A DNA stretch of 64,000 bases from Candidatus Omnitrophota bacterium. Lineage in GTDB: Bacteria; Omnitrophota; Gorgyraeia; Gygaellales; Profunditerraquicolaceae. Shown here piece by piece: positions 34,133 to 51,341 of the stretch (position 1 is its first letter; each line of letters begins with the position of its first letter). A program made the translations under genes and the position numbers. The notes under the pieces are model-generated. The model ran no database searches. It saw only the letters and a program-made list of their open reading frames with translations, and was not told the DNA's origin. The DNA lies in contig JBAZJY010000003.1 in the NCBI GenBank assembly GCA_041651115.1, forward strand, positions 194,524 to 258,523. The letters are read 5' to 3'.

Positions 34133-35182
34133 ATGCAATACAATTTTTGGCGCTTCCATCCGATCACGAAATTATTCTATTCCAGAAGACACACTCTAAG
34201 CGTACCGCCAAGCAGATTGATGTTTTCCTTAACCGGAAGATGCAACCTGCGCTGCCGGCACTGCCCAAGATCCAGTCTTCATGATCTCAACGAAAGCGAT
34301 TCGTCAAAAGAGCTGATTGATTACGTGGTTGAAAAGATCCTGCCGCATTGCAAATACTTGAGAATAGGCGGAAATACTTTGGGCGAACCGCTGCTATCCG
34401 AAAATTTTGATTATTTTTTCTCATCCATTGAAAAAAATAAGCCCAGGGAAGTCCATCTGGTTACCAATCTTACGCTCCTTGATGAAAAAAAGGCCGAAAC
34501 CCTAGTTAAGTATGTTGATAATCTTGAGGTCAGCGTTGAAGGAAGCCAAACGGCCTATTCACAGATACGTAATTTCAGTTGGCAGAAGCTCCTGGAAAAT
34601 ATCAAGCTTCTGCAAAAATACAGAGAAAAACATAAAGACAGCAAGCTAAGGGCCACTTTGCTTATCTGCACGATGTTAAGTAACCTTGAAAGCCTGATGG
34701 GCCTTTTTGACCTTAAGGATATCGGCGTTGATAAACTGGCTTTCCGCGAATTTGTAGCTTATGATAAAGATAAGCAGGCAGAATGCCTGTGGCGGAATCC
34801 GGAAAGAGTTAACGCATATATTAAAAAGTTTGAAAAAAGATCAAAAGAAACAGGCATGTGTATAGATATCAAGTTTAAAAATAACTATCCTGACAAAAAA
34901 CCGCACAAAATACATAGCCGTAAGCCGGGATCTGATAAATGCTACTTCCCATGGTCCTGCATTTCAATTGATAATACCGGGAGCATTTCATGTTGTTGTA
35001 ACAATAGCCTAGAACTTGGTAGAATAACCACATATGAAGAAGGCCTTTTCGGTTTTTGGAATAATAATAATTTTATTGCCCTGCGCAAATCCGTAAATAC
35101 CGCAGAACCGTGGCCGATATGTCTTGAGTGCGAAAGAAAAGCCATGCCGGAAATGGATAATAATGGTCAGACGCCTTCTTAA
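34133..35182 (+). CDS. Radical SAM/SPASM-domain protein
   Basis: AAGGAG 5 nt upstream of the ATG; CNLRCRHC cluster; C-terminal CYFPWSCISIDNTGSISCCCNN and CLECE cysteine-rich region. Confidence 0.75.
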   Translation: MQYNFWRFHPITKLFYSRRHTLSVPPSRLMFSLTGRCNLRCRHCPRSSLHDLNESDSSKELIDYVVEKILPHCKYLRIGGNTLGEPLLSENFDYFFSSIEKNKPREVHLVTNLTLLDEKKAETLVKYVDNLEVSVEGSQTAYSQIRNFSWQKLLENIKLLQKYREKHKDSKLRATLLICTMLSNLESLMGLFDLKDIGVDKLAFREFVAYDKDKQAECLWRNPERVNAYIKKFEKRSKETGMCIDIKFKNNYPDKKPHKIHSRKPGSDKCYFPWSCISIDNTGSISCCCNNSLELGRITTYEEGLFGFWNNNNFIALRKSVNTAEPWPICLECERKAMPEMDNNGQTPS

Positions 35183-36158
35183 AGCGCTGAATGAACGGGC
35201 TTACAAGCTGTTTGGAGAACTTGCTTGGTATAAAACACTAAGAAAGTTTTATTACTGCGGTATTAGATCCTGCGTTAAACGACGGAACAGCTCTTTTATT
35301 TTTTTAAACGGCCGTCAGCTGTCTGAAAAAAAACAGCGGCTCATGGAACATAACAAAATATGGAAAAAGGAACTGACACACCTCGCAATATATAAGCTTA
35401 AGAACAACGCTAGGGAAACCGTGGTAGTTAACCTTAAGGGGTCCGATTCATTCAAATTGGATGATGTTTTGTTTTGTGAATTGTTTGCATCCCGTGATCT
35501 TAAAATAGACTACAGTTTTTTTAAAGACGAGCTTCTTAGATGCATATATCCTGCCGAAAGCAGAGAGTATAGATATTACAAATACTGCGAAAGCCTTTTG
35601 AACTTTTATTTGAATAATTACGCTGCCAAAAAAGATGATTGCTCTACCGCGCAATTTTCCCTGGATATGTATAAATATGCGATCAATCATATCCGGGGCA
35701 ATTCGGTCTTAGACGCGGGCAGTTGCGCGGCAATTTTCCCAATATTGCTAAAACTAAAAATGCCCGCTAACGAAGTAACAGCCAGCGATTGCAATTGCGG
35801 ATACTTTGATGATTTCGCAGTGCAATATTGTAAGCAAAACGGCATAAACATTAAATTCAAGAAATTAGACATCCTATCCCCTTCCACGGAGGAGAGCTAC
35901 GATACCGTGACCAGCATCCACACCCTGGAACATTTTGAAGAAAAGGATACTGCCGCGGTGATCAACAACCTGCTTAAGATAACGAATAAAAGACTGATCA
36001 TGATCTTTCCCTTTGAAGATTTTATCACCATAAAAGACCACCGTCAGAAACTAAACCATAAAAAGATCAATATGATAATCAAGAACTTGCGCTTTCCCGC
36101 CAAAATAGAAAAAGTAAGCGCGCGGAATTACGCTTTGGCAATAGACACTGATAGATGA
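35124..36158 (+). CDS. Class I SAM-dependent methyltransferase-like protein (start possibly at 35163)
   Basis: VLDAGSCAA and TVTSIHTLEHFEE motifs. Confidence 0.45.
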   Translation: MSAKEKPCRKWIIMVRRLLKALNERAYKLFGELAWYKTLRKFYYCGIRSCVKRRNSSFIFLNGRQLSEKKQRLMEHNKIWKKELTHLAIYKLKNNARETVVVNLKGSDSFKLDDVLFCELFASRDLKIDYSFFKDELLRCIYPAESREYRYYKYCESLLNFYLNNYAAKKDDCSTAQFSLDMYKYAINHIRGNSVLDAGSCAAIFPILLKLKMPANEVTASDCNCGYFDDFAVQYCKQNGINIKFKKLDILSPSTEESYDTVTSIHTLEHFEEKDTAAVINNLLKITNKRLIMIFPFEDFITIKDHRQKLNHKKINMIIKNLRFPAKIEKVSARNYALAIDTDR

Positions 36159-38101
36159 AAACAAACCCAGATACATACCGCGCAGATATATCCGTTGTCA
36201 TTCCTACCTGCAATAGGCCGGTAGGCTTGCGCCGGCTGCTGGATAGCCTGTCTAAACAAACTATCCGGGTCAAAGAAATAATCGTTGTTGATAACGGAGA
36301 GCAGGGCAAAATCACTCCCCTCATTTCAAGCTTTTCCGGATCGCTAAACATAAGATATTTTTTTGAGCCATCTAAAGGCATCTCTATTGTCCGCAACAAA
36401 GGCATATCTGTTTCAACCTGCCCTATCATAGCCTTTCTGGATGATGATTGCGTTGCCCAGCCGCAGTGGCTGGAAGCCATAGACCGGGCATTTCAAGAAA
36501 ACCGGGATATTCAGATTTTGCAAGGCAATACAACCCAAACATCAACGACAAAAAACTTATATGTTGATATTTTTCAGGCTGACTACAAAGAATATATCCG
36601 AAATATGCTCTCTAAGACACCCGGATACGTAAGCATACTTAATACGCAAAATTTTGCCGTAAAACGGGAGCTAATCACGAGGTTCCGCATGCCTTTTGAA
36701 GAAAGGCTCGCTACAAACGAAGACCTTGAGCTATATTGGAAGCTCAATAAAATGGGTATCAGGGTCGCGTATTCAGAAGAAATGAAGGCAGACCATTACG
36801 CCTGCAATCGTTTTCTGCCTTTTCTGCGCGTGTGGTATAGATACGGCTTTGGTAAATCCCAAATTAAACGGCTGCATCCGGATTTTTCAGATGAATATTA
36901 TATCGACAATACCGCTTCTATATTTTCCTGCCTGCGTATGCTGTATCGCGAAATATTCCGGCCGCGGCACAAGATGGCCAATGCCATTATGTATTACCCT
37001 GTCTTAATCGCGCAAAAATCGTTCTTTATCGCCGGCATGTACATGGGAAGGAAAATGCCTGTCCCGGCATATAAGCGGCCCGCTACGCCTCCGGAAATGG
37101 TGCTGTTCGTGACAAATGAATGTAACCTCTCCTGTCGCCACTGTTTTTATCAATCCGCGCTTGCGCAAGACAAGCGGGAAATAAAAGCTTCCGATACAAT
37201 AAAGATCTTACGATCATTAACCCGTGACTTGGAAACAGTTTGCCTTGGCGGAGGCGAACCGTTCATTAATAAAGAGCTGGCTGAAATATGCAAGGCCTTT
37301 GCGCAAAATATTTATTTAAAAGACCTGTATATCGTAAGCAACGGCTTTGAAACCAACCGGATAATTGAAACAACCGAAGATATGCTCAAAAATTCGTTCT
37401 TTAACATACACCTGCGCATCTCCCTTGACGGCATGGCAGATAGCCACAACCGCATCAGGGGTAATGAACTGGCTTTTTCAAACGCAGTTGCCACGATCAA
37501 GGCGCTAAAGGACCTGCAGCGCAGATACGAGAAATTACAGCCAAGTATACAAACGATAATCAGCCAATTAAATATCGGGGAATTGACCCAATTGGCGCAA
37601 TTTGTCAAAAAAGAAATTGGAGTAATGCATGTATTTGATATCATCCGGGGCGCTACCATGTTTTACAAAAATGGCCTCTTTATAAACGAATCCTATGGTC
37701 CGCCAGATACAAGCCAACTGCTTACGCATAAACAGCTAAAATATGCCGCAAAGACAGTAAAAAAGTTCTACCGGGAATACGCCCAAGACAATACCATGAA
37801 ACCGGATGAAGCAAAATATCAGGAAACTCTCTTCAGCATAAGCAGTTACCAGGCGCTGAAAAGAAAACCGATAGTCAGGTGTTCAGCCGGAAAATCCATC
37901 GCGGTGATTTTTCCCAATTACGATGTTTCTCTTTGCGAGGCAGCCCGGCCAATTGGGAACCTTGCGGACCATAGCTTTGACTTTACGAAAATACAAACTA
38001 AGTTTTCCACGCCAGAAATAAAAAACCTAAGGGATTGCTGTTATTGCACCAATCCCTGCTATATTTCTTCAAGTATCCAAAACATGCGCGGGAGAAGATA
38101 A
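36155..38101 (+). CDS. Fusion protein with an N-terminal GT2 glycosyltransferase and a C-terminal radical SAM/SPASM domain
   Basis: N-terminus has ISVVIPTCNRP...FLDDDC; the middle has FVTNECNLSCRHC (CxxxCxxC); the C-terminus has cysteines at CSAGKS, CEAA and CCYCTNPCY. Confidence 0.7.
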   Translation: MKTNPDTYRADISVVIPTCNRPVGLRRLLDSLSKQTIRVKEIIVVDNGEQGKITPLISSFSGSLNIRYFFEPSKGISIVRNKGISVSTCPIIAFLDDDCVAQPQWLEAIDRAFQENRDIQILQGNTTQTSTTKNLYVDIFQADYKEYIRNMLSKTPGYVSILNTQNFAVKRELITRFRMPFEERLATNEDLELYWKLNKMGIRVAYSEEMKADHYACNRFLPFLRVWYRYGFGKSQIKRLHPDFSDEYYIDNTASIFSCLRMLYREIFRPRHKMANAIMYYPVLIAQKSFFIAGMYMGRKMPVPAYKRPATPPEMVLFVTNECNLSCRHCFYQSALAQDKREIKASDTIKILRSLTRDLETVCLGGGEPFINKELAEICKAFAQNIYLKDLYIVSNGFETNRIIETTEDMLKNSFFNIHLRISLDGMADSHNRIRGNELAFSNAVATIKALKDLQRRYEKLQPSIQTIISQLNIGELTQLAQFVKKEIGVMHVFDIIRGATMFYKNGLFINESYGPPDTSQLLTHKQLKYAAKTVKKFYREYAQDNTMKPDEAKYQETLFSISSYQALKRKPIVRCSAGKSIAVIFPNYDVSLCEAARPIGNLADHSFDFTKIQTKFSTPEIKNLRDCCYCTNPCYISSSIQNMRGRR

Positions 38102-38229
38102 AAATGGCTATTTTAACTATCAGGGCACGCAAGTTCCCCTATGTCCTTGCCTTAATCATGTTCTTAAGCAACCTGTATTTCCTCCTTTTCAAAAAAAATA
38201 AGATCATAAAAATGAAATAGGCTCCGGCT

Positions 38230-39804
38230 ATGCGAAAAACCCTTGAATATTTTTGCGATTATTGCTCGAAAAATAAATTCCTTAGCCCTCTCTTTGCCGC
38301 GTATTACCGATTAGCCGTCAAATCGCTGGCACTTGCCTTAAAAATGCATAATTTTAAACAAATAGTAAAAGTCTATTTGCGCCATAGGGATTGGATCTTG
38401 GGCGTCAGCGACATAGACCTCATTTTCATTATGAAATCTTTGGAACCGGCGGAAGATGCGAGTTCTTTCAAGAAGCTATGGAAAACCTATATTTTTTTGC
38501 GTAAGCTGTTTCCCATGCTCTGCGACACAGAAGAAATCCGGTTTATTCCCGAAGAACAGATCAGAGAACACCCCCTCCGGGTAAACGGCGAAACGGCATT
38601 GCTGCTGTCTCCGCATAAATGGGAATGCATCTATTCCAAAAAAGGCAGTATCTCCCCTGCGTCTTTTTCCCTATCTCATCCGGAAAAGCCTGCCATACCG
38701 CATACCCGTTTCCTGCATTTTAACTTTTACGGTTATATGCAACGGATGATCCTCTCCGGGCAGGATATTCCGGCATTAAAGTTTTGCCGGTTACGCAAAA
38801 ATATGATGAAAATATTGCAGCACTTATTCTATTTAAAGAATAGCAAGGCAATCGGGATGGATGAATTGACAAAGCAGCTCTCCGGACAGGAAAAAACCTG
38901 CAAAGACGCGGATGAAATAGCGGCGAGAGATATATTTAAGCTCCTGGAAGAAGTTCCCGCAGGCGCTGCAGCCCGCCGCAATGCACTGCTTTACGCCTTT
39001 CGAAAACTGATCCTATTTATCCAGGATGTCCACGACCGCCATTATGACCTCGGAAGCGGAACTCATCCCGCCCCCCATACCCATGATGGCAGCTGGATGG
39101 GAAAGCCGCTGAAAGATTTTATTGAAGAAGGCAACAGGTTATTCGGCGAGCGTTTCCGGGTTAATGCCATAAAACCGATCTCTGAACTTACGCAGCGGGC
39201 ATTCCTTTCTATCGACGAAAATACCGACCGGGATCTTTTTGAAAAATTGATCCTGTTCTCAAGCCGGCATTATCAAATGCTCCTCCGGTCCGGAACGTCC
39301 CTTTATGTTGTTACGGATAAGATCCTTACATCGCAATTCTACGCCCTATGGAGCCCCCATGCGCTGGAAGCGCATATATTGCTGGCAAGGGATTCCTTTA
39401 ATCCCGGACAAATGTTAAAAATCAAATTACCTCCGGAGGAATGGACTTTACGGAAAATCAGGAATTCGCTTGCCATTTTTGAGGAATACTATCTTCCCCT
39501 TCTGGCATCTCCGTATGCCGGAGGAAACGGCATAGATTTCTGCAAGATATACGAAAGGCCGGAAGTAGAAATGTTGTTCCATTATTTTTATTACCTGAAA
39601 GACCGGGATGTCTATTTTCGCGACCTTAAACAGGCAAAGGGCGACTCCGCTGAAATACTCTGCCTGACTGCTGCAAAATATGCCGATGAAATCGGATTAA
39701 ACCAGTGGCATCCGTATGAATATGTAACGGCATATCCCTATCTTAAAAAAATGATCCGCCTTGTTGACCGGATGACTTGCGAAAGAATCGGCCGGAGATG
39801 TTAA
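38230..39804 (+). CDS. Hypothetical protein with an N-terminal nucleotidyltransferase (Pol-beta-like) motif
   Basis: ILGVSDIDLIFI matches the GS...DxD pattern; 524 aa. Confidence 0.4.
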   Translation: MRKTLEYFCDYCSKNKFLSPLFAAYYRLAVKSLALALKMHNFKQIVKVYLRHRDWILGVSDIDLIFIMKSLEPAEDASSFKKLWKTYIFLRKLFPMLCDTEEIRFIPEEQIREHPLRVNGETALLLSPHKWECIYSKKGSISPASFSLSHPEKPAIPHTRFLHFNFYGYMQRMILSGQDIPALKFCRLRKNMMKILQHLFYLKNSKAIGMDELTKQLSGQEKTCKDADEIAARDIFKLLEEVPAGAAARRNALLYAFRKLILFIQDVHDRHYDLGSGTHPAPHTHDGSWMGKPLKDFIEEGNRLFGERFRVNAIKPISELTQRAFLSIDENTDRDLFEKLILFSSRHYQMLLRSGTSLYVVTDKILTSQFYALWSPHALEAHILLARDSFNPGQMLKIKLPPEEWTLRKIRNSLAIFEEYYLPLLASPYAGGNGIDFCKIYERPEVEMLFHYFYYLKDRDVYFRDLKQAKGDSAEILCLTAAKYADEIGLNQWHPYEYVTAYPYLKKMIRLVDRMTCERIGRRC

Positions 39805-39808
39805 ATAT

Positions 39809-40975
39809 ATGAAAAAAATATTATTCCTTACAAATTTGCTCCCGGTACCCATGGATACCGGAGGAAAAATCCGGGATTACCATATTGTAGAATATCTTTC
39901 CCGGAAGCATGAGGTATGGTTTGCCGGTTTCAGGGAGAAGAATCTCAAAGAAAACGAGACTTCGCTGCCGTTTATCCCGCGGGAAAGATGCCTTACCACG
40001 GAACCGGAAGACCTTGATATCCGCGCTTTTTTACGTAAGCACGACGTACCTTACTGGTGCCTTGGATATTACTCAGAGAAGATGGAAAAAATACTGGATA
40101 CCGTTATAGAAAAGAACCGCTTCGACTATATCCATATCTCGCACAGCTACATGGCCCAGTATGTCACAAAATACAAAGGTGTCATCGGGTTAGTGGACCA
40201 CCAGAACGTAAAAACCATCCTCTACCATAGTGCCTGTGCAGGAACAAACAACCCCCTGAGAAAAATAAATTATTCCGCCGAATACTATAAATGGTATAAA
40301 TACGAACGGGAGGTACTGCGTAATTTTGAATTCCACCTTGCCTGTTCGCCGGTCGAACAAAAAGCAATAGAAAATTTTGTGCATCGCCCGGTCAGGCTTC
40401 TGCCGTCAGGCGTGGATACTGAACGCTTCTATGAGAAAAAAGGAATGGATACCGGAGCTAATCTGCTTTTTACCGGAAGCTTTGATTATTTTCCCAACCA
40501 TGAAGCAGCCGTATTCTTCTGCAAAAAAATCCTGCCGCTTATCCGTAAGGCTGTCCCGAACGTCGTCTTTCAGGTAGTCGGACGCCAGCCGCGTGAAGCG
40601 CTTGAGAAATTGATCAGAAAAACACCGAATACCTGGTTTTCCTGCAATGTCAGGGATATACGGCCGTTTTATTATCAATCAGCCGTAGCTGTCGTGCCGC
40701 TCTCGGTCGGCGCAGGGACAAGGCTTAAAATACCGGAGGCAATGGCAACCGGCCTTCCGGTAGTCAGTACTTCAAAAGGCTGCGAAGGATTAGGATTGGC
40801 TAATGGAGAAGGGATTATTATTGCCGATGATCCGGCACAATTTGCAGAAGCAGTAATTTCACTGCTGAAAGATAGCAAAGCGCGCGAAGGTTTGAGCCGG
40901 AAAGCCGCAGTAATCAGCAGGGAGCGTTTTTCCTGGAATGAGGTATTGAAACCGCTGGATGCGATCTATCTTTAG
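39809..40975 (+). CDS. Family 4 glycosyltransferase (GT4, GT-B fold)
   Basis: EAMATGLPVVST motif. Confidence 0.8.
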   Translation: MKKILFLTNLLPVPMDTGGKIRDYHIVEYLSRKHEVWFAGFREKNLKENETSLPFIPRERCLTTEPEDLDIRAFLRKHDVPYWCLGYYSEKMEKILDTVIEKNRFDYIHISHSYMAQYVTKYKGVIGLVDHQNVKTILYHSACAGTNNPLRKINYSAEYYKWYKYEREVLRNFEFHLACSPVEQKAIENFVHRPVRLLPSGVDTERFYEKKGMDTGANLLFTGSFDYFPNHEAAVFFCKKILPLIRKAVPNVVFQVVGRQPREALEKLIRKTPNTWFSCNVRDIRPFYYQSAVAVVPLSVGAGTRLKIPEAMATGLPVVSTSKGCEGLGLANGEGIIIADDPAQFAEAVISLLKDSKAREGLSRKAAVISRERFSWNEVLKPLDAIYL

Positions 40976-41470
40976 CTAACGGTAATTGCAAAAAGCCAGC
41001 GGAATGGAAAAATCCAGCCCCTTCAGGTGCGCTATTACTGCCTGTAATTCGTCTTTCTTGGAAGAGCTAACCTTGATCTTTTCGCCTTCGATCTGGGCCT
41101 GAACTTTTACCCCCAGCCCTTTAATGATATTCGTCAGTTCTTTTGCCTTTTCCCGGTCAATACCCATACATATCTCTACTGACTGGCGCAAGTAACCCTC
41201 AAAAGCCTTTTCCGGATCATTAAATTTAAGGGATTTAAGAGAAACCCCTCTTTTAGCCAGCCGGGTGATCAAAATGTCGGTAAGGCTGCGCAATTTGAAG
41301 TCATCATCCGCTACCAATGTGATCTTTTTTTCTTTACGGTCATAGGCAATAGAGGCCTTGCTGTTTTTAAAATCATAGCGTTGGGCCAATTCTTTATTCG
41401 CCTGATTTACCGCATTGTCCACTTCCTGTAAATCTACCTCAGAAACAACATCAAAAGAAAAATTTGCCAT
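40976..41470 (-). CDS. yajQ: YajQ family (UPF0234) nucleotide/c-di-GMP-binding protein
   Basis: 164 aa; typical YajQ sequence. Confidence 0.8.
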   Translation of the reverse strand: MANFSFDVVSEVDLQEVDNAVNQANKELAQRYDFKNSKASIAYDRKEKKITLVADDDFKLRSLTDILITRLAKRGVSLKSLKFNDPEKAFEGYLRQSVEICMGIDREKAKELTNIIKGLGVKVQAQIEGEKIKVSSSKKDELQAVIAHLKGLDFSIPLAFCNYR

Positions 41471-41472
41471 AA

Positions 41473-42477
41473 TTATCCCTCTGAATTTTTTAAATTTACG
41501 GCCTTTTCAATATGCCGCGATATTCTTACTGCCAAAAGGACCAAAATAATCATAATGCCGAATATAAAAATAAGCGAGTCTTTTATGGTATCCGTGAGGA
41601 GTACGCGGAAAATGTACGGGGGCGCACTGAACATAACCAGGAATAATGGACGGTTATCCGATCCCAACGTGATCATTTTTGAAATCGAATAAAAATTGAC
41701 AGGCCGGAATTTTTGTTTCTGGAGCCGGCCTGATAATAAAGCTGCCTTTTCTTCTACGGGAGAATACAACAATTTACCATCATGGGTTAATACACTGGCA
41801 ACATATTCTTTGTATTGCGTATACCCTTTTAGATAAGAAAAATAATCCGTCAAGTCGCAATGCAGGATTACGGCACCGCCAAATCCGCCTACTTCCGGCT
41901 CGGTCTTTGCTATCCCGGCTAAAAAAGTATATGCCCCCTGGTAGGCAAACGGTCCCTCAACAAGGATGGTCCGAGGCCTTGACGACCTTAATTTCCGGAA
42001 CAAGCTATAAATATGCGTATAAAGCGGTTCATCCGGATGAGTAATTAATGAAGTATAGTTTTTTTGTCTTCTGTTACCTGCGGTAATGACCCTTTCCGCG
42101 CCTGCGGGATCAATAAACCGCATTGATAAATAGATGCTTTCTTTTTTTCCGGTAAAATGTAAAAATATCTGTTCGATCCTGGACTTATTTAAGAGCAGGT
42201 CTTCTCTTCTCGAGCTAAGGTAATCGTTGATCGAGGGGCCTATTTCGATCAGCGACAGGTCATCGTTGATCCTGGAGGTATAAGCGCGGTTAAAATAATT
42301 AACGGAGCTCCGTAAGTAAGTCTCAAATTCTCTTTCCACTTCCTGGCGTATGACTCTGCGCTCGTGGATAAAATAAGCTACCAGCGAGCAAGACAATATA
42401 AAAATCCCGACAAAAAGATACGAGATCAATAATCTTTGAAAGATAGATAAGCCCTTTACTTTATTATCCGTCATCAT
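41473..42477 (-). CDS. Membrane protein with two TM helices flanking a periplasmic sensor-like domain; hypothetical
   Basis: 334 aa; TM helices at residues 20-40 and 300-320. Confidence 0.4.
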   Translation of the reverse strand: MMTDNKVKGLSIFQRLLISYLFVGIFILSCSLVAYFIHERRVIRQEVEREFETYLRSSVNYFNRAYTSRINDDLSLIEIGPSINDYLSSRREDLLLNKSRIEQIFLHFTGKKESIYLSMRFIDPAGAERVITAGNRRQKNYTSLITHPDEPLYTHIYSLFRKLRSSRPRTILVEGPFAYQGAYTFLAGIAKTEPEVGGFGGAVILHCDLTDYFSYLKGYTQYKEYVASVLTHDGKLLYSPVEEKAALLSGRLQKQKFRPVNFYSISKMITLGSDNRPLFLVMFSAPPYIFRVLLTDTIKDSLIFIFGIMIILVLLAVRISRHIEKAVNLKNSEG

Positions 42478-42484: not shown

Positions 42485-43600
42485 TCATGGGTATTTTTCT
42501 AATGCCAACGATTTATCTATGTATTCTTCCACAAAATCTTTGCCCGTCAGGTCTATACCAAGCCTTTTAGCCCTTTCACGGTTTACGATTACCTGCCCTC
42601 TCTCGGGGGCATACACCGGGATATTCGCCGGGTTCTTACCTGCCCGCAATATCTGATCCGCTATCTTCACTGCCTCGTATCCTTGCTTAAAACCGGAATC
42701 ATCAACCACCAAAAGCATGCCTTCCTGCGCGAATTGTTTTTCCTGTGAGCATTCGGGTTTAGCTATATTTTTCAAGTACCATGCCCCGATCTCCAACTGG
42801 TCTATGGATTTACCGTGTTTGTCCCTGATCGTATTATGGTTTAAGACAAAAAAAGCATCTACATTTTTCTGTAAGTCCAATGCCTTCGACTGCCATTCTT
42901 CTAATGAGTCGGTAACAACTGCCCCGATAAGTTTCAGGGGTAGCTTACCGGTACTTGCGAGTTTTTGTAATTCTTTGGCTTTTGTCCTGCCGGTTTCCGA
43001 ATCATCGGCAAGCACCGCAAAAGTAGTTACCCCCGGGATGAGCTTTTTAAGATACTCCAGGCATTCTTTCACGTACCCTGCCTGATAAACGCCGGTAACA
43101 TTATGCCCCGGCCACTCTATTGAATCCAGCAATCCGTATTTCATGGGAAATCCGTTGATTCCCCAAAACACTACCGGAATATCGGTATCAATAAATTGGC
43201 TGCCGATATAGTTAGCCGCATTATCGTCTCCCAAAAAGATCAGGTCGGGCTTGAATTCATTTATTTCATCAATTATGCTGCCGGCTGCATCGGCTATTTC
43301 GCCTGCCTTACTCCGGCGTTTTGTATCCATCCAGGCCCTTTTTATTATTGTACGTTCCGTCTCAATATAATCATTCCTGGTATATTCATCGGCTTGGGCC
43401 TGATTGTCAAAGAATTTAAAATCGATAAGCGCGGCGCAGAAGCCCTTATTGGTGTCTTGCGACCAGAGATATTCCGGGTGATAGCTGCTTACAACGAATA
43501 ACCTTGTTTTTCTCGGCCCTGCGTAACATAAGGAGGAAAGGAAAAGGATCAGGGATAAAGCGCTGATTATGACTTGCTTTTTCATCGGCAATCTCCTCAT
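42485..43600 (-). CDS. Periplasmic substrate-binding-protein-like protein with a signal peptide
   Basis: 371 aa; N-terminal leader MKKQVIISALSLILFLSSLCYA. Confidence 0.45.
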   Translation of the reverse strand: MRRLPMKKQVIISALSLILFLSSLCYAGPRKTRLFVVSSYHPEYLWSQDTNKGFCAALIDFKFFDNQAQADEYTRNDYIETERTIIKRAWMDTKRRSKAGEIADAAGSIIDEINEFKPDLIFLGDDNAANYIGSQFIDTDIPVVFWGINGFPMKYGLLDSIEWPGHNVTGVYQAGYVKECLEYLKKLIPGVTTFAVLADDSETGRTKAKELQKLASTGKLPLKLIGAVVTDSLEEWQSKALDLQKNVDAFFVLNHNTIRDKHGKSIDQLEIGAWYLKNIAKPECSQEKQFAQEGMLLVVDDSGFKQGYEAVKIADQILRAGKNPANIPVYAPERGQVIVNRERAKRLGIDLTGKDFVEEYIDKSLALEKYP

Positions 43601-43655
43601 AGAGACATTTTATCACGATGCCGAAAATAATCCAACAATTTAGGTGGGCAAATAA

Positions 43656-43689
43656 AAAAGCCGAGCTCTTAAGCTCGGCTTTTTTAAAT
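43656..43689 (-). terminator. Rho-independent terminator (aaaaaagccgagct ctta agctcggctttttt) downstream of the PEP-CTERM gene
   Basis: Perfect 10-bp stem flanked by an A-run and a T-run. Confidence 0.75.
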
Positions 43690-43704: not shown

Positions 43705-44445
43705 TCAGGCGGTTTTTCTGCGAAATTTACGTGACACTAGTCCGGCTAGCCCCATACCCAATAGAACTACGGATCCGGGTTCCGGTGTCGCCACCGGGAT
43801 GAGGTCACCGTTTACAGAAATATTACCGACCAGGGGATACCGGCTGTTACCGTCTCCAGAATTATACCAGAATGCCAGCCATAAATCATCCTCATTACCC
43901 GGCAATGAATACGTTGAATAAAGCCAGGGAGCGGCGGCAGTCTTACTGCTAAGCAACGTCGTCCAATTGCTCCAACTTGCAGCCCCTGTAGTTAAATCAA
44001 TTGTCCTGTCGGAGGCAAACCCGCTGATATCTCCTATAAAATATCCCACTTTAAGTCTTTCGGAAGAAAGAGGCAAATAGGCCCTCCAGTTAAAAGACAA
44101 TGTCACATTTTCATAACCGGCGGTTGACGCATTGATTAAAATTCCCGCGTCATCTTTGAATCGCACATTGGTCGCATTTGCGCCAAGGCTAGAGTTGGGC
44201 GGGCTTGTAAAGATATCGCTGGCAATAGTCCCACTACCGGGCGCGAAACGGACGCCGTACCAATTATTATCCGCCCCTGTTCCGCTTATCGTAGGAACTC
44301 CGTATATGGTAGTTGCTACTGTATTAAAATCTTCCTGAAAAATTATTACGGCATGCGCGTTCGTAGTTACGCTTAAAACTGCGAACAAAAGAAAAGTAAA
44401 GATTAATATCCGCTTCATCCCTTGCCCTCCTTTTTCATGTGTCAT
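43705..44445 (-). CDS. PEP-CTERM domain protein (the start is likely at 44418, MKRILIF...)
   Basis: C-terminal VATPEPGSVVLLGMGLAGLVSRKFRRKTA, i.e. a PEP motif followed by a TM helix and a basic tail; N-terminal signal peptide. Confidence 0.8.
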   Translation of the reverse strand: MTHEKGGQGMKRILIFTFLLFAVLSVTTNAHAVIIFQEDFNTVATTIYGVPTISGTGADNNWYGVRFAPGSGTIASDIFTSPPNSSLGANATNVRFKDDAGILINASTAGYENVTLSFNWRAYLPLSSERLKVGYFIGDISGFASDRTIDLTTGAASWSNWTTLLSSKTAAAPWLYSTYSLPGNEDDLWLAFWYNSGDGNSRYPLVGNISVNGDLIPVATPEPGSVVLLGMGLAGLVSRKFRRKTA

Positions 44446-44625
44446 AATTATCTACTCCACCTATCTTTATAATTAGCAAATTTCATGCCAAAATATATAT
44501 TATATTTACAATTTTTATAACTACTTGTAATTTAATGAGATACTAAGATCACCCGCTGCCTGATGTTGTTTTATTTTTTAAACAATTGCCTATTTATTGC
44601 AACATACAGCTAAAAAATAAACATA

Positions 44626-44676
44626 ATTTACCAATAAAAAACAAATGCCCCACCTAAATGGTAGGGCACTGTTTCT
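44626..44676 (-). terminator. Imperfect hairpin followed by a T-run after tRNA-Ser(GGA)
   Basis: In minus orientation: gtgccctaccatttaggtggggcat ttgtttttt. Confidence 0.4.
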
Positions 44677-44680
44677 TAAC

Positions 44681-44768
44681 TGGCGGAGAGACAGGGATTC
44701 GAACCCTGGTACCCTTGCGGGTAACGCGCTCTCCAAGCGCGCGCGATCGACCGCTCTGCCATCTCTCC
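44681..44768 (-). tRNA. tRNA-Ser (anticodon GGA), class II
   Basis: Acceptor GGAGAGA/TCTCTCC with discriminator G and CCA; anticodon stem CGCGC/GCGCG with loop TTGGAGA; long variable arm. Confidence 0.8.
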
Positions 44769-44775
44769 AAAATTA

Positions 44776-45267
44776 CTAAGGAATCTTTTTTAAATCTAAG
44801 GGAATCTCTTTCCTCTTATGCTCTATGAAATTGCTATCCGGATAATTAAGGAATTTTCCGGAAAACGAAATCAGGAGCATGATCAGAAAAAAACGCATAT
44901 TGCCGGTGGACAGGAAAACAAATACCCCGATTACCCCTATCACGTCCAGCATACTCATCGTAAGTATTGTAACAAATAATATCCCGCGGTAAAAGGTTTC
45001 CGTAGAAGAAACCCTTGCCTTTTGTATTTCCCAAAGCCTTTCCCTTACCGCGTGCGCCGAAGCTGCGATCAATAGCGCGGGAATAATAAGCCAGTAAAGA
45101 TTGCTGCCGAAAATGATCTCCGGGCGATGCTGCATCCTGGGATGGCTGAAAAAATACACGAGTGAGAATAAGCCATAAACGAATGAATCAAAGATCAGGG
45201 CAAAACTGACCATCCTCACGACTCTTTGCAGCCCTTTTAAAGTGACGGTATTTTGCGAATCTTGCAT
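44776..45267 (-). CDS. Hypothetical membrane protein
   Basis: 163 aa with 4 TM helices. Confidence 0.4.
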   Translation of the reverse strand: MQDSQNTVTLKGLQRVVRMVSFALIFDSFVYGLFSLVYFFSHPRMQHRPEIIFGSNLYWLIIPALLIAASAHAVRERLWEIQKARVSSTETFYRGILFVTILTMSMLDVIGVIGVFVFLSTGNMRFFLIMLLISFSGKFLNYPDSNFIEHKRKEIPLDLKKIP

Positions 45268-45288
45268 GCTTTAGCAATTTAAGGAGCA

Positions 45289-45378
45289 TGGCGGAGAGTG
45301 GAGGATTTGAACCTCCGGTCGTCTTACGACGACAACGGTTTTCGAGACCGCCGCATTCAACCGCTCTGCCAACTCTCC
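45289..45378 (-). tRNA. tRNA-Ser (anticodon CGA), class II
   Basis: Acceptor GGAGAGT/ACTCTCC with G and CCA; anticodon loop CTCGAAA; variable arm GTTGTCGTCGTAAGACGACCGG. Confidence 0.75.
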
Positions 45379-46511
45379 ACTTTTTTCATGTGGCTAAAAA
45401 CCGGATCAAAGTTTTCAAACATCATAAACCTGTGATGAAGTTTGAAAAACGGCTCCAATAACCGGCTCACCGGCTTGGTATAAACAAAAAGCGGCAGGAA
45501 ATTGAAGCCAAGCCTGCGCTTTATTTCATAGCTGGACTGCCCTATTTCATAGGTCTTCATTTTATTGGCAATGCACCAATTTAACAGATCGCGGAACCTG
45601 ACTAAATAAAGATTGTATTCGTGGGCAACGGAATAATCAAAGCCAAGATAATAATCCACAAAATAATCCCCCGAAATAAGGCAAAGCGCAAAGCTGACTA
45701 TCCTGCCTTCAAGGCGCCAAAGAAAAAGCTTAGCCTCGTTGGGCATATTGCCAAACACCGTCTTAAAAAAAGATTCCGGCAGTATCTCAAACTCCACATC
45801 TGACTGCCGCGCGGTTTGCAGATAAAGGCCATGGATGATCTTATTGGTCGCGTCATCAAGAGAATCCGCTATTTCCATAGAGACAGACGGATTATTGCTA
45901 ATCTTCTTAAACTTCCTGCGGAAGCCCTCACGCGAAGAACTGCTTAAGGTTTTCAGGTAACCTTCAAAGCTGTCAAAATTAATATCTATGGCCATAGAAG
46001 GCAGACTTTTAGAACGCAGGAAACCGTGCTTAGAAAGCAGCGGGCCAAAAAGTTCGGCATTTGAAGGCTTGAAGTCCTTAAACACGAGTATGGCGGATTT
46101 GCTGTCCTTGGCGATCTTAAGCATACCCGCATAAATCGCCTCAAACACCTGCTCCAGGTCTGCCTTAAAACCTATCCTGGCCTGGCCCATCGGCAGGCCG
46201 CAAAAAAGCGTCTTCATACTCAAAAAACCCGGGAATACCTTCTTTAGCGCATCGGTCACCCGGCGGAAGATCCCGCGAAAAGCCATATCAACATGAAAAT
46301 CCATAAGGAAAAAAGTGGCTATCCCGACAAGCTTATCCAAATCATAAACAAGACAGTAATAGAATGAAAATTGATCAAATCCCGACTCATCCAGAGACTT
46401 ATAAAAAGAATAGCTCTCAACCGCTTCGGGAAATACCGCCTTCCATTGGTCAAAGGGTATGTCTTCTATCTTTCTTACGATCTTAGTCTGTAAAGAAGCT
46501 CCGGAAACCAT
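45357..46511 (-). CDS. FemAB-like/GNAT-fold acyltransferase of the PEP-CTERM-system-associated type (start probably ATG 46511; its C-terminus overlaps tRNA-Ser by about 20 nt)
   Basis: About 384 aa; FemAB-like profile; its context is about 0.9 kb from the PEP-CTERM gene. Confidence 0.45.
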   Translation of the reverse strand: MVSGASLQTKIVRKIEDIPFDQWKAVFPEAVESYSFYKSLDESGFDQFSFYYCLVYDLDKLVGIATFFLMDFHVDMAFRGIFRRVTDALKKVFPGFLSMKTLFCGLPMGQARIGFKADLEQVFEAIYAGMLKIAKDSKSAILVFKDFKPSNAELFGPLLSKHGFLRSKSLPSMAIDINFDSFEGYLKTLSSSSREGFRRKFKKISNNPSVSMEIADSLDDATNKIIHGLYLQTARQSDVEFEILPESFFKTVFGNMPNEAKLFLWRLEGRIVSFALCLISGDYFVDYYLGFDYSVAHEYNLYLVRFRDLLNWCIANKMKTYEIGQSSYEIKRRLGFNFLPLFVYTKPVSRLLEPFFKLHHRFMMFENFDPVFSHMKKVESWQSG

Positions 46512-46513
46512 AT

Positions 46514-46894
46514 TTATCCCCTGCCCACCATAATTATGCCTAATACAATAGAAATGATCCCGAACCAACGTACCCGGGTAATGCGTTCCTTTAAAATAAA
46601 CATTGAAGCAAGAGTGATAAATATATAACGCATGCTGTCCAGGCAGTAAGCTAGATTAAGCTCTGCCTTTGAAAGCACGAATAACCATATAACTAAAGAA
46701 AACGAGCTGAAAACGAAACCCGCCCATACGCGGGTGGATGTTATAAGGCGCTTGATAAAACGCAGGATATTCCTTAATGAATCCGGGCTTAAATCAAAGG
46801 AATTGACCGCGGTTTTTAAAAAAAGCTGGCTTGTCGTATCACAAAGATCAGTCAGGACAATCAGCGGGAATACCAGCATGAACATTTGATTCAT
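46514..46894 (-). CDS. Small 4-TM EamA/SMR-like transporter subunit (ArnE/ArnF-like lipid-linked sugar flippase half)
   Basis: 127 aa from ATG 46894 (MNQMFML); ATGA overlap with the upstream paralog. Confidence 0.5.
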   Translation of the reverse strand: MNQMFMLVFPLIVLTDLCDTTSQLFLKTAVNSFDLSPDSLRNILRFIKRLITSTRVWAGFVFSSFSLVIWLFVLSKAELNLAYCLDSMRYIFITLASMFILKERITRVRWFGIISIVLGIIMVGRG

Positions 46895-47301
46895 GCGGCT
46901 GCCTCTCTCGCCTGTTTGCTGCTCAAAGAAACCAGGATTACCCCGAGAATAATAAAGAATATCCCGAGCCAGCGCGTGGGCGCGATAACTTCGTGAAAGA
47001 AGATTACCGAAACCAGCGGTATGGTTATATAACTGAAGCTGGCTACCGGCACCGCAACGCTTAAATCGATCCTGGAGATCACCCCCGACCAGATCACAAA
47101 CAGGGTAAACACAGTGAAAAGCCCCAGCCATAAAAACGGTGTACTTAAGATCCCGATTATGAATACCGGGACATTTAACGGCTCCTGTATGGTTTGCGCC
47201 AAAGCAGCCTTCTTAAAGCAAAACTGGACAATCGTTTCCAGGAGATCCGTGGATAACAATAGAAGAAAAAGGCCGAATGTAAGATGGCGCTTCTTATGCA
47301 T
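46891..47301 (-). CDS. Small 4-TM EamA/SMR-like transporter subunit (ArnE/ArnF-like), paralog of 46514..46894
   Basis: 136 aa with 4 TM helices. Confidence 0.5.
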   Translation of the reverse strand: MHKKRHLTFGLFLLLLSTDLLETIVQFCFKKAALAQTIQEPLNVPVFIIGILSTPFLWLGLFTVFTLFVIWSGVISRIDLSVAVPVASFSYITIPLVSVIFFHEVIAPTRWLGIFFIILGVILVSLSSKQAREAAA

Positions 47302-47371
47302 GATTAGATGATGAAGATAAACGGTGGAGCTGGGATTCGTACCGCACCTTTTTTAAGCTATGTAAGTTATT

Positions 47372-47458
47372 ACGGAGGAGGAAGGATTCGAACCCTCGGA
47401 GACTTTACAGCCTCAACGGTTTTCAAGACCGCCGCATTCGACCGCTCTGCCACTCCTC
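47372..47458 (-). tRNA. tRNA-Ser (anticodon TGA), class II
   Basis: Acceptor GGAGGAG/CTCCTCC with discriminator G; anticodon loop CTTGAAA; T-loop TTCGAAT. Confidence 0.8.
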
Positions 47459-47471
47459 CATAAATCCTGAC

Positions 47472-48158
47472 TTAAGCCTTAACGCTAAAAAGCTGGTTAA
47501 ATACTCCGATAATTATGCCTCTGCCGATCTGATAAGCCTGATTGGAAAGGCTGACAAAGGAGAATTTTTCAAAACTCAAGCTCAAAAAGAACGAAAGTAT
47601 AAGAATACTGGTTATATAAACGAAGGAAAAACCAAAAATATAATTGCCTTTAAGGAAATCGCCTTTTTTGGAGCGCAGGGTCTTGGCGCTGAAAACAAGG
47701 TGCAAGCTTAAAGTAAACCCAAAAAGGAAAACAAAATTATTGGTTAAATCCGCGGATTTGGCTACCGAGGCAATGATCAGGTAGAGCACACCGAGAAGGA
47801 TCGTATAGATCGGCAGCAGATACGGCGCTACTTTGACCAGCGGCCTGAAGAAACTGAAAACCCATTCCAATATCTTATGGCCGCGGGTATAAATTGATAA
47901 CGGCTCACAGATAAATAAATAAACGAGCAAGAAACTGATCGCGCCTGACCAGAAAAAAGTTTGCCCTGTAGAAGTAACGCCGTTAAACTGTTTGAGAAAA
48001 GCTACTGTACTGCCGTAAACAAACGGCAGCAGGAATACCCCAAAAAGGAACTTGGTAAAGCTAAAAAGCCAGCTCAAAAATCCGGAGAATTTGGATTTTG
48101 CTTCGGCAACAACGTTACCGCCCAAACCGGGTTTAGGGAATTCTTTCTCTTCCATCAA
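47472..48158 (-). CDS. Hypothetical polytopic membrane protein
   Basis: 228 aa with 6 TM helices. Confidence 0.4.
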
Positions 48159-49401
48159 AGTATGGTCTTAGTGCTTCTGGGATGATTATTGAGCCGTCTT
48201 TTTGCTGATAGTTCTCCAATATCGCGATCACTGTCCTTGCCATTGCCACTCCGGAACCGTTTAGCGTATGCACAAATTCCAGCTTCTTGGCCCCTTTATT
48301 GCGAAATTTGATATTTGCCCGGCGGGCCTGGAATGCCTCAAAGTTGCTGCAACTAGAAACCTCAAGCCACTTATCCGCTCCGGGAGCGTAAGCTTCAATA
48401 TCATAACATTTGGCAGCGGCAAAGCTGATATCGCCGGTAGAAAGCATGACTACCCGGTATGGCAGGCCCAAAAGTTGTAAAACAGTTTCGGCATTATTCA
48501 ATAGTTTTTCCAATTCATCGTAGGAGTTTTCAGGCTTAACGAATTTAACCAACTCCACCTTATCAAACTGGTGCACGCGGGTTAGGCCTTTCGTATCCTT
48601 GCCGTAAGAGCCTGCCTCCCTGCGGAAACAAGCGCTGTAAGCAGCATAGCAAACCGGAAGCTGTTCTTCTTCTAATATATCATCCCGGAAAATATTGGTT
48701 ACCGGAACTTCTGCCGTAGGGATAAGGAACAAATCGTCGTCCTTGAGCCGATACATGTCTTCTTCCAATTTAGGAAGCTGGCCTGTGCCGGTCATTGAGG
48801 CACGATTAACCAAAAACGGCGGGAATACTTCTGTGTAGCCGTGTTTTTTAGTATGCAGATCAAGCATAAAATTGATCAATGCGCGCTCTAATCTGGCGCC
48901 ATAGCCTTTATAGAGGATAAAATTAGAGCCGGTGATCTTGGTGGCCCGGGGAAAATCAATAATATCAAGATTTTGACAGATTTCAAAATGACTTAAGGGC
49001 TTAAAATCAAATTTCTTCTGCTCGCCCCAGGTGCGTACGACTTTATTATTTGTCGGATGGCCTACGGGTATTGAGGCATGCGGGATATTCGGTATGGTCA
49101 GCAGGATGTTATTCAATTCCGGCTCAATGGCGCGCACCTCTTCCTCCAACTTGCTGATCCGGCCGGAGATCTCTTTCATTGAAGAGATCTTTTCTTTGGC
49201 GTCCTTTTTCTCTTTCAGTAATGCGCTGATCTCATTGTTGGACTTATTTTGCTGCGCCCTTAACTCTTCAAGCTCAAGCATTGCCTTGCGTCTTGTATTG
49301 TCGAGCTTGATAAAGACGCTCAAATCAAGTTTTAAGTTGCGGTCAACAAGCGATTTTTTTACTAAGTCAATGTTGTCTCTGATAAACCTGATGTCTAACA
49401 T
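48133..49401 (-). CDS. serS: Seryl-tRNA synthetase
   Basis: 422 aa; N-terminal coiled coil followed by a class II aaRS core. Confidence 0.9.
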
Positions 49402-49459: not shown

Positions 49460-50908
49460 TTAACCCTTGATAACACCGAGCGGTCGCATTCTACAGACGC
49501 GCTTGGAAATACCGGCATTATGCACGACACTTACCACATCGTTAACGTCCTTATAGGCAGACGGAGCTTCTTCTACGATAGTGCCGCGGCCTGAAGCTTG
49601 GACTATTATACCCTTAGACTCTAATTCTTTCAATAGCGTATTCAGATTTGTCGATTTCGTGGAGGCAGTGCGGGATTTAACCCTGCCTGCGCCATGGCAC
49701 GTCGAGCCAAACGTTTCTTCTTCTGCTTTTTTCGTACCGACAAGCAGGTATGAATTCCTGCCCATGTCTCCGGGAATGATCACCGGCTGGCCGCTTTCGC
49801 GGTAGCGTTCGGGGAGCGCGGGATTACCCGGGCCAAAAGCGCGGGTGGCGCCTTTTCTATGCACGCACAAAAGCTTTTCCTTCCCGTCAATAACGTATTT
49901 TTCTATTTTCGCGATATTGTGGGCAACGTCATAGATCAGCGACATTCCCATTTTTTGCCAGGACATACTGAATATCCGCTCAAAACTTTTACGCGCCAGA
50001 TGCATCAGGCACTGCCGGTTTGCCCAGGCGTAATTTGCCGCGCAGCGCATTGCGCCGATATACTGTTTGGCTTCAGGCGAATTAACCGGCGCGCAGGCAA
50101 GCTGGCGGTCAGGCACATTGATATTATATTTCTGCAGGCAGGCGATCATGCTCCTTGAATAATCTTCGCAGATCTGATAACCAAAGCCGCGCGAACCGGA
50201 ATGGATCATTACCATTACCTGGCCGAGATCTAATTCAAACCTGTCGCAAAGATCGCGGTCAAAAAGCTGGTCAATAACCTGAATTTCCAAAAAGTGGTTT
50301 CCTGAACCAAGCGTGCCGGATTGCGCCTTGCCTCTTTCATATGCGCGGTCTGAAACTGCATCCGGGTCAGCTCCGGGAATCGCGCCGGATTCTTCCGTGC
50401 ATTCAAGGTCGTCCTGGCAGCCATAGCCGTTTTCCACTGCCCATTTTGCGCCTTTGAGCAAAAGCTGCTTCTCTTCTTTTGCGCTTACGCGAATATCGCC
50501 TTTTGAACCTACGCCGGAAGGCACATCGGAAAATAACGCATAAACCAGATCCCTGATCTTATCTTTTATTTCTTCATACTGGAAATTTGTTTTTAAGAGC
50601 CGCACCCCACAGTTGATGTCAAAACCAACCCCTCCGGGCGAGACTGCTCCGCCTTGTTCAATATCGGTAGCCGCCACTCCCCCGATAGGAAAACCATATC
50701 CCCAGTGAATATCCGGCATGGCCAACGAATAATTCACGATCCCCGGCAAAAAAGCAACATTCGCCACCTGCTCCAGCGCTTTATCGTGGTAAATATCTTT
50801 AAGGAGTTTTTCATCGGCGTAGATCAGGCCGTCAACTTTCATCCCGGCCTTATACGACCTGGGTATGCGCCAGTGAAAATCATCAATCTTTTCAAGCATC
50901 CCTGTCAT
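49460..50908 (-). CDS. rtcB: RNA-splicing ligase RtcB
   Basis: 482 aa; RtcB family sequence. Confidence 0.9.
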   Translation of the reverse strand: MTGMLEKIDDFHWRIPRSYKAGMKVDGLIYADEKLLKDIYHDKALEQVANVAFLPGIVNYSLAMPDIHWGYGFPIGGVAATDIEQGGAVSPGGVGFDINCGVRLLKTNFQYEEIKDKIRDLVYALFSDVPSGVGSKGDIRVSAKEEKQLLLKGAKWAVENGYGCQDDLECTEESGAIPGADPDAVSDRAYERGKAQSGTLGSGNHFLEIQVIDQLFDRDLCDRFELDLGQVMVMIHSGSRGFGYQICEDYSRSMIACLQKYNINVPDRQLACAPVNSPEAKQYIGAMRCAANYAWANRQCLMHLARKSFERIFSMSWQKMGMSLIYDVAHNIAKIEKYVIDGKEKLLCVHRKGATRAFGPGNPALPERYRESGQPVIIPGDMGRNSYLLVGTKKAEEETFGSTCHGAGRVKSRTASTKSTNLNTLLKELESKGIIVQASGRGTIVEEAPSAYKDVNDVVSVVHNAGISKRVCRMRPLGVIKG

Positions 50909-50918
50909 TTTATTTTTC

Positions 50919-51341
50919 CTATACGTCGAATATTACTTCTGCCTGCCAAAGGCCGGATTCCTGCCAGATTCTCAAACCGTGATAGGTCGCAGCCTTGATC
51001 TCGACGTTCACCTTACAGTCTTTAGCGGGCCTGCCAAAGGCAAGCGCCTGCAATGAATCGCCCTCAAGTTTATTTACCTTAAAATCGAAAAATATCAGTT
51101 CTTTAGTGTTGGATAAAGACAATAATTCATTGAGCCAAAATACCAACAGTTCTTCTAAATTACCTGCTTCTTGTTTTATGCTGATTTCCTGCTGGATAGC
51201 TGAGCCGGAGAGTTGATGCGGAGCCTCGGCAATGATATCAAACATTGCCAAGCCTGCACTTTTAAAAAGCGAGGCCGGGTCTTTTGCCTTAACCCTGATG
51301 CCGATATCAGCGGTGTGTTCAATGACCTCATAATCTTTCAT
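50919..51341 (-). CDS. Archease (RtcB activator)
   Basis: 140 aa; MKDYEVIEHTADIGIRV motif. Confidence 0.85.
   Translation of the reverse strand: MKDYEVIEHTADIGIRVKAKDPASLFKSAGLAMFDIIAEAPHQLSGSAIQQEISIKQEAGNLEELLVFWLNELLSLSNTKELIFFDFKVNKLEGDSLQALAFGRPAKDCKVNVEIKAATYHGLRIWQESGLWQAEVIFDV

Follow-up and report, generated by a model that had tools for sequence, protein, structure and literature searches.

The 64,000-nucleotide (nt) stretch analyzed here (hereafter the window), taken from contig JBAZJY010000003.1 of a metagenome-assembled genome (MAG) of Candidatus Omnitrophota, a phylum whose members are ultra-small and possibly depend on hosts, encodes a protein with a PEP-CTERM sorting signal (hereafter the cargo), a FemAB-like gene, and a glycan cluster at 22174-40975. 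A preliminary description of this DNA had treated the first two as marks of an exosortase-type extracellular polysaccharide (EPS) system, to which the glycan cluster was then assigned. Our analysis suggests instead that three independent units have been read as one system, namely the cargo gene, a cassette to which the FemAB-like gene belongs, and the glycan cluster, and we consider this reading quite probable. It corrects a guilt-by-association argument, in that equating a FemAB-like gene plus a PEP-CTERM protein with an XrtA EPS locus would here mislabel a cluster of Wzm/Wzt, GT-C and radical S-adenosylmethionine (SAM) genes. The cargo is a routine exosortase substrate, named as such by the NCBI Prokaryotic Genome Annotation Pipeline (PGAP), and no hidden or novel exosortase was found in the window. 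The cassette, conserved and uncharacterized, combines a FemX-fold transferase with an ArnE/F-like transporter pair and could be a so far unrecognized way of modifying the envelope in Omnitrophota.

The sorting signal of the cargo is well supported. Its C-terminus (...IPVATPEPGSVVLLGMGLAGLVSRKFRRKTA) scores above both curated cutoffs (TIGR02595: 20.5 bits, cutoff 16; PF07589: 26.0 bits, gathering cutoff 20.7). The preliminary description, which had placed this signal at the end of 43705-44445, had named failure of the tail on the PEP-CTERM hidden Markov model (HMM) as the outcome that would undo its claim, and the tail passed both models. Both align to residues 219-243 of the 246-amino-acid (aa) open reading frame (ORF), and the tail, TPEPGSVVLLGMGLAGLVSRKFRRKTA, is tripartite, a PEP motif being followed by a transmembrane (TM) helix and, at the very end of the protein, by a cluster of Arg and Lys. 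The N-terminus, MKRILIFTFLLFAVLSVTTNAHA followed by V, reads directly as a Sec-type signal peptide ending in AHA. Between the two lies a mature domain of about 185 aa that matches no Pfam family, is rich in Ser, Thr, Gly, Asn and Ala, and carries six N-x-S/T sequons; PEP-CTERM proteins are generally rich in Ser, Thr and Asn. The true start is likely the ATG at 44418, which has GGAGG in front of it and is also the start used in public gene calls; since an exact-protein look-up found the 237-aa form on record and the 246-aa form absent, we set the start there. No other PEP-CTERM-like C-terminus was found in a six-frame translation of the window. The identical protein is named “PEP-CTERM sorting domain-containing protein” by PGAP in a Candidatus Omnitrophota MAG, and proteins identical to those of the window are also encoded by a 357-kb contig at NCBI and by ENA ERZ27247363 k141_2792708. 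Judged by its sequence, then, the cargo is a genuine PEP-CTERM surface protein, already annotated as such.

The arrangement of the genes around the cargo points to a unit of its own. With predicted terminators on both sides, a spacer upstream and GGAGG before the start codon, the cargo gene is most simply read as monocistronic, apart from the cassette on one side and from the solute-binding gene and glycan cluster on the other. The promoter and terminator calls come from consensus-pattern scans. Two tRNA-Ser genes stand between the cargo and the FemAB-like ORF, which lies 912 nt from the cargo ORF start at 44445, or 939 nt when the preferred start, 44418, is used, and the genes for YajQ, a solute-binding protein and a membrane protein stand between the cargo and the glycan cluster.

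Relatives of the cargo are few (5 proteins in 5.8 billion protein clusters, and 7 metagenome loci), and the signal peptide and PEP-CTERM tail are kept in 5/5 of them; one sequon of the cargo, NWT, belongs to a motif with good conservation among the relatives. One relative is P0124, encoded at locus L011, which is 41% identical to the cargo (tblastn E 7e-51) and lies in a locus of canonical XrtA type. L011 contains a glycosyltransferase of family 2 (GT2), a DegT protein, a TIGR03019 FemAB protein (325.6 bits), a TIGR03006 deacetylase (358 bits), an exosortase, EpsI, a Bac_transf priming glycosyltransferase, three tandem PEP-CTERM genes, a tetratricopeptide repeat (TPR) protein and a sigma-54 response regulator. 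Its exosortase gene is split by a scaffold gap; the rebuilt sequence scores 150 bits on TIGR02602 and served as our positive control. When the FemAB, deacetylase, exosortase, EpsI, priming glycosyltransferase and cargo proteins of L011 were searched against the window by tblastn, only the cargo found a match. The cargo resembles the PEP-CTERM/XrtA-EpsH system (TIGR02595, PF07589) in its architecture, in its scores on both models, and in having an approximately 40%-identical relative within an XrtA locus, and differs from it in being solitary and monocistronic, with no exosortase, EpsI, XrtA-type FemAB, deacetylase, priming glycosyltransferase or regulator nearby. Another cargo relative adjoins the same priming glycosyltransferase as in L011. 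A distant relative, at locus L101, forms a tandem pair of cargo genes with no exosortase within ±10 kb, so some distance between cargo and enzyme is normal. As a separate observation on L011, the PEP-CTERM model also matches, with 20.4 bits, the N-terminal segment APEPGSVALISTGLFGWMIGFARRRF of its priming glycosyltransferase (Bac_transf, 8335-9108), a membrane enzyme that bears what resembles a sorting signal, but at the wrong terminus.

The statement that the window holds no clear exosortase is borne out by every search we made. PF09721, TIGR02602, TIGR03109 and TIGR04178 gave no match on any substantial window ORF scanned against Pfam and NCBIfam, and the EpsI and archaeosortase models likewise gave none; the L011 exosortase reached a best E of 0.08 in tblastn against the window; and the catalytic motif CxG[ILMV][RK][ST] occurs in none of its frames. 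The 10 kb to the right of the window hold LptFG, Alr, TsaDE and Trp genes, and no exosortase. The suggestion that one of two large polytopic proteins in the glycan cluster might be a divergent exosortase did not survive the exosortase-HMM check, which was run on both; neither matches an exosortase model even at E<=10, and the 8-TM core with conserved Cys, Arg and His (TIGR02602/TIGR04178/PF09721) was found in neither. Both are GT-C-like. For the 531-aa protein, 65 relatives were found in 1.84 billion representatives, and the 60 that were scanned gave matches to PMT_2 (3), EpsG (2) and GT87 (2), and 0 to the exosortase family. The 633-aa protein, from a family of 8 members, has its best structural matches in the oligosaccharyltransferases AglB, STT3B and PglB, with a model of moderate confidence (predicted local distance difference test, pLDDT, 65). 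Unlike the known GT-C glycosyltransferases (AglB/STT3/PglB, AftA/AftD, PMT, ArnT), neither protein has any Pfam or NCBIfam match. We also considered whether the two are paralogs; a BLASTP E of 2.8 indicates that they are unrelated.

The content of the glycan cluster suggests a different export route. It encodes six GT2s, a glycosyltransferase of family 1 (GT1), a Wzt-like ATPase, a Wzm-like permease of the ATP-binding cassette (ABC) type ABC-2, a methyltransferase, three radical-SAM proteins and the two GT-C proteins, and is on this content an ABC-transporter-dependent (Wzm/Wzt) locus and not one of XrtA/EpsH type. The GT1 matches TIGR03087, a glycosyltransferase family of the XrtA system, from end to end with 222.8 bits (E 8e-66; cutoff 316.65), and TIGR03088 with 36 bits. 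Apart from it, the cluster contains no XrtA marker among those tested, chain-length determinants and PrsK not having been specifically screened. Bac_transf and Polysacc_deac had no match on the scanned window ORFs, and the PrsR-type model had none in the family scans of window ORFs (the sigma-54 regulator of L011 was not among the tblastn queries). A 634-aa TPR protein (59159-61063) was considered as a candidate PrsT and set aside, as its PrsT score of 85 bits (cutoff 312) reflects generic TPR similarity and it lies in a cellulose-synthase-like cluster. The claim that the cargo marks the glycan cluster as an exosortase-type EPS system is therefore not sustained: the cargo forms a separate terminator-bounded unit, three genes intervene, export is of the Wzm/Wzt kind, and the XrtA markers tested are missing, apart from the sub-threshold TIGR03087-like GT1.

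Two further features of the cluster deserve mention. Its radical-SAM proteins (26537-27805, 34133-35182 and 36155-38101) include one with a SPASM domain and one GT2::radical-SAM fusion, and there are also sub-threshold matches to an MftF-like glycosyltransferase and an MftM-like methyltransferase, an unusual chemistry for a polysaccharide locus. At the cluster edge, a perfect 30-bp tandem repeat of 3.1 copies (22182-22275) has a unit that includes the 3′ end of tRNA-Leu(CAG) (22112-22195), and on the minus strand encodes the odd C-terminus of ORF 22174-23769, VPLSKFGAER three times over. The repeat looks like a duplication of the att-site type, and the cluster may be an island.

Part of what had been said of the FemAB-like gene holds and part does not. 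A gene of this superfamily does lie about 0.9 kb from the cargo, with 52.1 bits on PF04339 (gathering cutoff 27) and 53 bits on PF13480 (gathering cutoff 22). It is not, however, of the PEP-CTERM-associated type: TIGR03019 gives 11.5 bits against a cutoff of 260.35, the family profile aligns to the TIGR03019 member of L011 with an hhalign probability of 12%, and its partners are EamA genes instead of an exosortase. What it shares with TIGR03019 proteins is membership of the Acetyltransf_6/Fem-like tandem GNAT superfamily, a similar length, and an alignable C-terminal “Y-x-x-K-R-x-x-G” region. Y328 and K331 of the window protein are invariant. Neither the protein nor its profile found a meaningful match in the PDB by sequence. 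AlphaFold predicts a tandem GNAT (pLDDT 91.8), and the PDB entries that Foldseek places closest to this model (probability 1.00) are Weissella FemX, the aminoacyl-tRNA-dependent peptide synthases Sbb17 and Sba18, FemA, and the synthase domains of MprF. Acetyl-CoA-dependent tandem GNATs match the model as well, and the fold does not separate aminoacyl-tRNA from acyl-CoA donors. The likeness to FemX and FemA (Weissella FemX 1NE9/7Z6A; Sbb17/Sba18) extends to the tandem GNAT fold (Foldseek E 5e-13 to 1e-11, TM-score 0.5-0.7) and to the lack of an acetyl-CoA P-loop motif when the sequence is read by eye, whereas identity is 12-14% and the NCBIfam FemX model gives 14 bits. A literature search on PEP-CTERM with FemAB, and on PF04339/DUF482/COG3146, returned nothing functional beyond a refuted guess of a “pterin-dependent enzyme” for COG3146.

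The neighborhood of this gene in other genomes gives a clearer picture of its partners. We compared 80 FemAB-like loci from GTDB species-representative genomes, a set that does not include the source MAG. EamA genes lie directly beside the FemAB-like gene in 59-60 of these loci, and in P0106 (locus L010) a FemAB-like::EamA fusion is followed by a second EamA gene. In the window, the two EamA genes overlap by 4 nt and the FemAB-like gene follows after a 2-nt gap, which argues for one translationally coupled cassette with a transporter-like pair as the conserved partner. By tblastn, the 80 loci yielded 0 matches to the cargo, an exosortase, seryl-tRNA synthetase (SerRS) or the small membrane proteins, and they contain 0 PEP-CTERM-like C-termini. 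The 163-aa and 228-aa TM proteins of the window were considered as cassette members and rejected, as no other locus keeps either of them next to the cassette. Three further genes extend the cassette in 14-21 of the 80 loci, encoding a haloacid dehalogenase-type (HAD-IB) enzyme, a class-III pyridoxal phosphate (PLP) enzyme and an alpha/beta hydrolase (L025, L048, L057, L068-L072, L077-L079, L081, L087, L090 and L093 are extended); the closest PDB entries are MtnX and phosphoserine phosphatases for the HAD-IB enzyme, and an Ala/Ser racemase (E 6e-58) for the PLP enzyme. The FemAB-like family is essentially confined to Omnitrophota, and, as far as sequence and gene context can tell, the cassette is restricted to this phylum and has no link to PEP-CTERM sorting.

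What could such a cassette do? One tentative idea, which we think rather unlikely as it stands, is an Omnitrophota-wide “split MprF-like” system, in which the FemX-fold transferase would aminoacylate a membrane-linked acceptor and an ArnE/F-like heterodimer would flip the product to the outside, thereby modifying the envelope. Aminoacylation would then take place at the cytoplasmic face, possibly with aminoacyl-tRNA as donor and with either a phospholipid or a sugar carried on polyprenyl phosphate as a possible acceptor. The observations cited for it are the EamA pairing in about 60 of the 80 loci, the fusion, the structural matches to aminoacyl-tRNA-using enzymes, the extended cassettes, and the serS/tRNA-Ser surroundings. 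The analogy with MprF, which joins an aminoacyl-phosphatidylglycerol synthase to a flippase, lies in a FemX-fold transferase that is genetically coupled, and in P0106 fused, to a membrane module resembling a small-molecule or lipid transporter, and in the presence of MprF synthase domains among the structural matches. Here, however, the membrane partner is a half-size EamA/DMT pair and not the MprF flippase domain, and since Pfam assigns only PF04339 and PF13480 to the transferase, it lacks the DUF2156/LPG_synthase_C match of MprF. The EamA pair resembles the ArnE/ArnF undecaprenyl-phosphate-aminoarabinose flippase in consisting of two adjacent, coupled, 4-TM half-size DMT proteins, with ArnE and ArnF as best NCBIfam matches (40-43 bits). 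These scores do not reach the cutoffs (92 and 99), none of ArnA, ArnB, ArnC and ArnD is adjacent, and the ArnT-like GT-C protein of the window is 14 kb away in another cluster.

On the minus strand of the window, from 49401 to 40976, the order around the cassette is serS, the 228-aa membrane protein, tRNA-Ser(TGA), EamA, EamA, FemAB-like, tRNA-Ser(CGA), the small membrane protein, tRNA-Ser(GGA), the PEP-CTERM gene, the PF04392 protein, the 334-aa membrane protein and YajQ. Three different tRNA-Ser isoacceptor genes (TGA, CGA and GGA) thus lie downstream of serS, co-directionally and each 0-11 nt after a coding gene (44681-49401). The last 7 codons and stop of the FemAB-like ORF (45357-45378) lie inside tRNA-Ser(CGA); if this tRNA is processed from a shared transcript, the RNase P cut would strip the stop codon from the FemAB-like mRNA. 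A linkage to serS and tRNA-Ser as a conserved feature of the cassette was considered and not adopted, with SerRS near 0/80 loci. Of the 16 tRNAs that lie near the cassette in other genomes, 5 are tRNA-Ser (p ~0.02, uncorrected for phylogeny), a weak over-representation that we keep as a weak hint.

For the cargo, a conventional route may be proposed by analogy with exosortase and archaeosortase systems. It would be exported by Sec, with the C-terminal helix holding it in the inner membrane; an exosortase encoded elsewhere in the Omnitrophota genome would cleave it at the PEP motif; and the cleaved protein would be released or attached to an acceptor on the cell surface or in the matrix. The exosortase is presumably elsewhere in this MAG. 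Several points weigh against the separation of the three units as we describe it. The placement of the exosortase elsewhere is an inference from about 74 kb of inspected genome. The TIGR03087-like GT1 is the cluster gene nearest the cargo, so there may be some functional tie between the two. The cargo carries its sequons while the 633-aa GT-C protein appears structurally closest to oligosaccharyltransferases, although that model is itself of moderate confidence. Finally, the terminators and promoter that would isolate the cargo are predicted from consensus scans.

The alternative that the cargo, the FemAB-like gene and the glycan cluster form one exosortase-type EPS system, with an exosortase that is either a divergent polytopic protein or encoded just outside the window, seems to us very improbable, and we regard it as already largely refuted. 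A FemAB protein does belong to the true XrtA locus L011, and a FemAB-superfamily gene and the cargo stand less than 1 kb apart here, but the window protein falls far below the TIGR03019 cutoff, and in the 80 other loci neither cargo nor exosortase matches occur near the cassette. The GT1 matches TIGR03087 over its full length, but under the cutoff and in a cluster that exports through an ABC transporter. Neither polytopic protein, both GT-C-like, matches an exosortase HMM, no exosortase, EpsI, TIGR03006 deacetylase or priming glycosyltransferase was found in the window by HMM or tblastn, and the cargo is insulated by terminators and tRNA genes.

It could also be that the signal is an orphan, in a genome without exosortase, where the tail is a mere C-terminal membrane anchor or a relic, now decaying, of an XrtA locus that has been lost or was gained horizontally. 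We consider this improbable. The cargo is solitary, when its relatives stand in tandem arrays beside an exosortase, its family is tiny, and no exosortase was found in the roughly 74 kb formed by the window and the 10 kb to its right; a literature search also found no paper tying Omnitrophota or Omnitrophica to exosortases or PEP-CTERM. However, the tail is intact and above both curated cutoffs, and the relatives at L101 likewise have no exosortase in their vicinity. PEP-CTERM proteins are reportedly found in genomes that encode an exosortase, and the cargo genes are said to be usually scattered. A further alternative, which would explain the proximity of cargo and cluster, is that the oligosaccharyltransferase-like GT-C protein of the neighboring cluster attaches glycans to the cargo sequons in the periplasm, making the cargo a glycoprotein, with the exosortase elsewhere. 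Six sequons in 237 aa, one of them in a conserved motif, the Ser/Thr/Asn-rich composition said to be general among PEP-CTERM proteins, and the structural affinity of the 633-aa protein to AglB, STT3B and PglB are in keeping with this idea. We nevertheless hold it to be quite improbable, as no WWDxG-type oligosaccharyltransferase motif is evident when the 633-aa sequence is read by eye, three unrelated genes and terminators separate cargo and cluster, and the cluster, with tRNA-Leu at its flank, may be an island that has a history of its own.

Table 1. Positions of the features discussed, numbered from the first nucleotide of the window.
Feature	Position	Strand	Remarks
531-aa polytopic protein, probably GT-C or polymerase-like	22174-23769	-	not an exosortase
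633-aa polytopic protein, GT-C fold architecture	23770-25671	-	approximately 12 TM helices and a periplasmic domain; not an exosortase
Wzt-like ATPase and Wzm-like ABC-2 permease	27660-29209	-	export route of the cluster
GT1, full-length sub-threshold TIGR03087 match	39809-40975	+	sole XrtA-leaning marker
YajQ	40976-41470	-	
334-aa membrane protein	41473-42477	-	
PF04392 solute-binding protein	42485-43600	-	
Strong bidirectional hairpin terminator (predicted)	43653-43686	.	15-bp stem, A and T runs either side; directly 3′ of cargo stop
PEP-CTERM cargo gene	43705-44418	-	237 aa; longer ORF up to 44445 (246 aa)
Cargo PEP-CTERM tail	43708-43803	-	aa 206-237
Cargo signal peptide	44350-44418	-	aa 1-23
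Terminator-like hairpin with T-run (predicted)	44644-44670	-	3′ of tRNA-Ser(GGA); then an AT-rich spacer (about 200 nt) before cargo
tRNA-Ser (GGA)	44681-44768	-	
Small polytopic membrane protein, family unassigned	44776-45267	-	163-aa ORF; 145 aa in public calls
tRNA-Ser (CGA)	45289-45378	-	5′ part inside the end of the FemAB-like ORF
FemAB-like tandem-GNAT protein (PF04339/PF13480)	45357-46511	-	384 aa; not TIGR03019
Half-size EamA/DMT membrane protein, ArnF-like below cutoff	46514-46894	-	126 aa; translationally coupled to FemAB-like gene
Half-size EamA/DMT membrane protein, ArnE-like below cutoff	46891-47301	-	136 aa; 4-nt overlap with next gene
tRNA-Ser (TGA)	47372-47460	-	
228-aa membrane protein	47472-48158	-	
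Seryl-tRNA synthetase serS	48133-49401	-	head of co-directional gene run

Other parts of the window hold features of separate interest. A giant ORF on the minus strand (1-7482), at least 2494 aa long and running past the left edge of the window, combines glycoside hydrolase family 94 (GH94) supersandwich and catalytic domains with glucoamylase-like and GT2 domains, and looks like a cyclic beta-1,2-glucan synthase (Cgs/NdvB). A second polysaccharide module at 56716-62738 contains a GH26 hydrolase, a cellulose-synthase-like GT2 (TIGR03030 249 bits, below cutoff), the 634-aa TPR protein and the ArnT-like GT-C protein (178 bits). The RNA ligase RtcB and archease are encoded beside tRNA-Lys, and tmRNA and SmpB form a separate pair (window positions 49460-51341 and 20146-21047, respectively); the tmRNA encodes an unusually long tag of 28 aa, ANTSNRLAGTMVSPLTARPAFIPAFALN.

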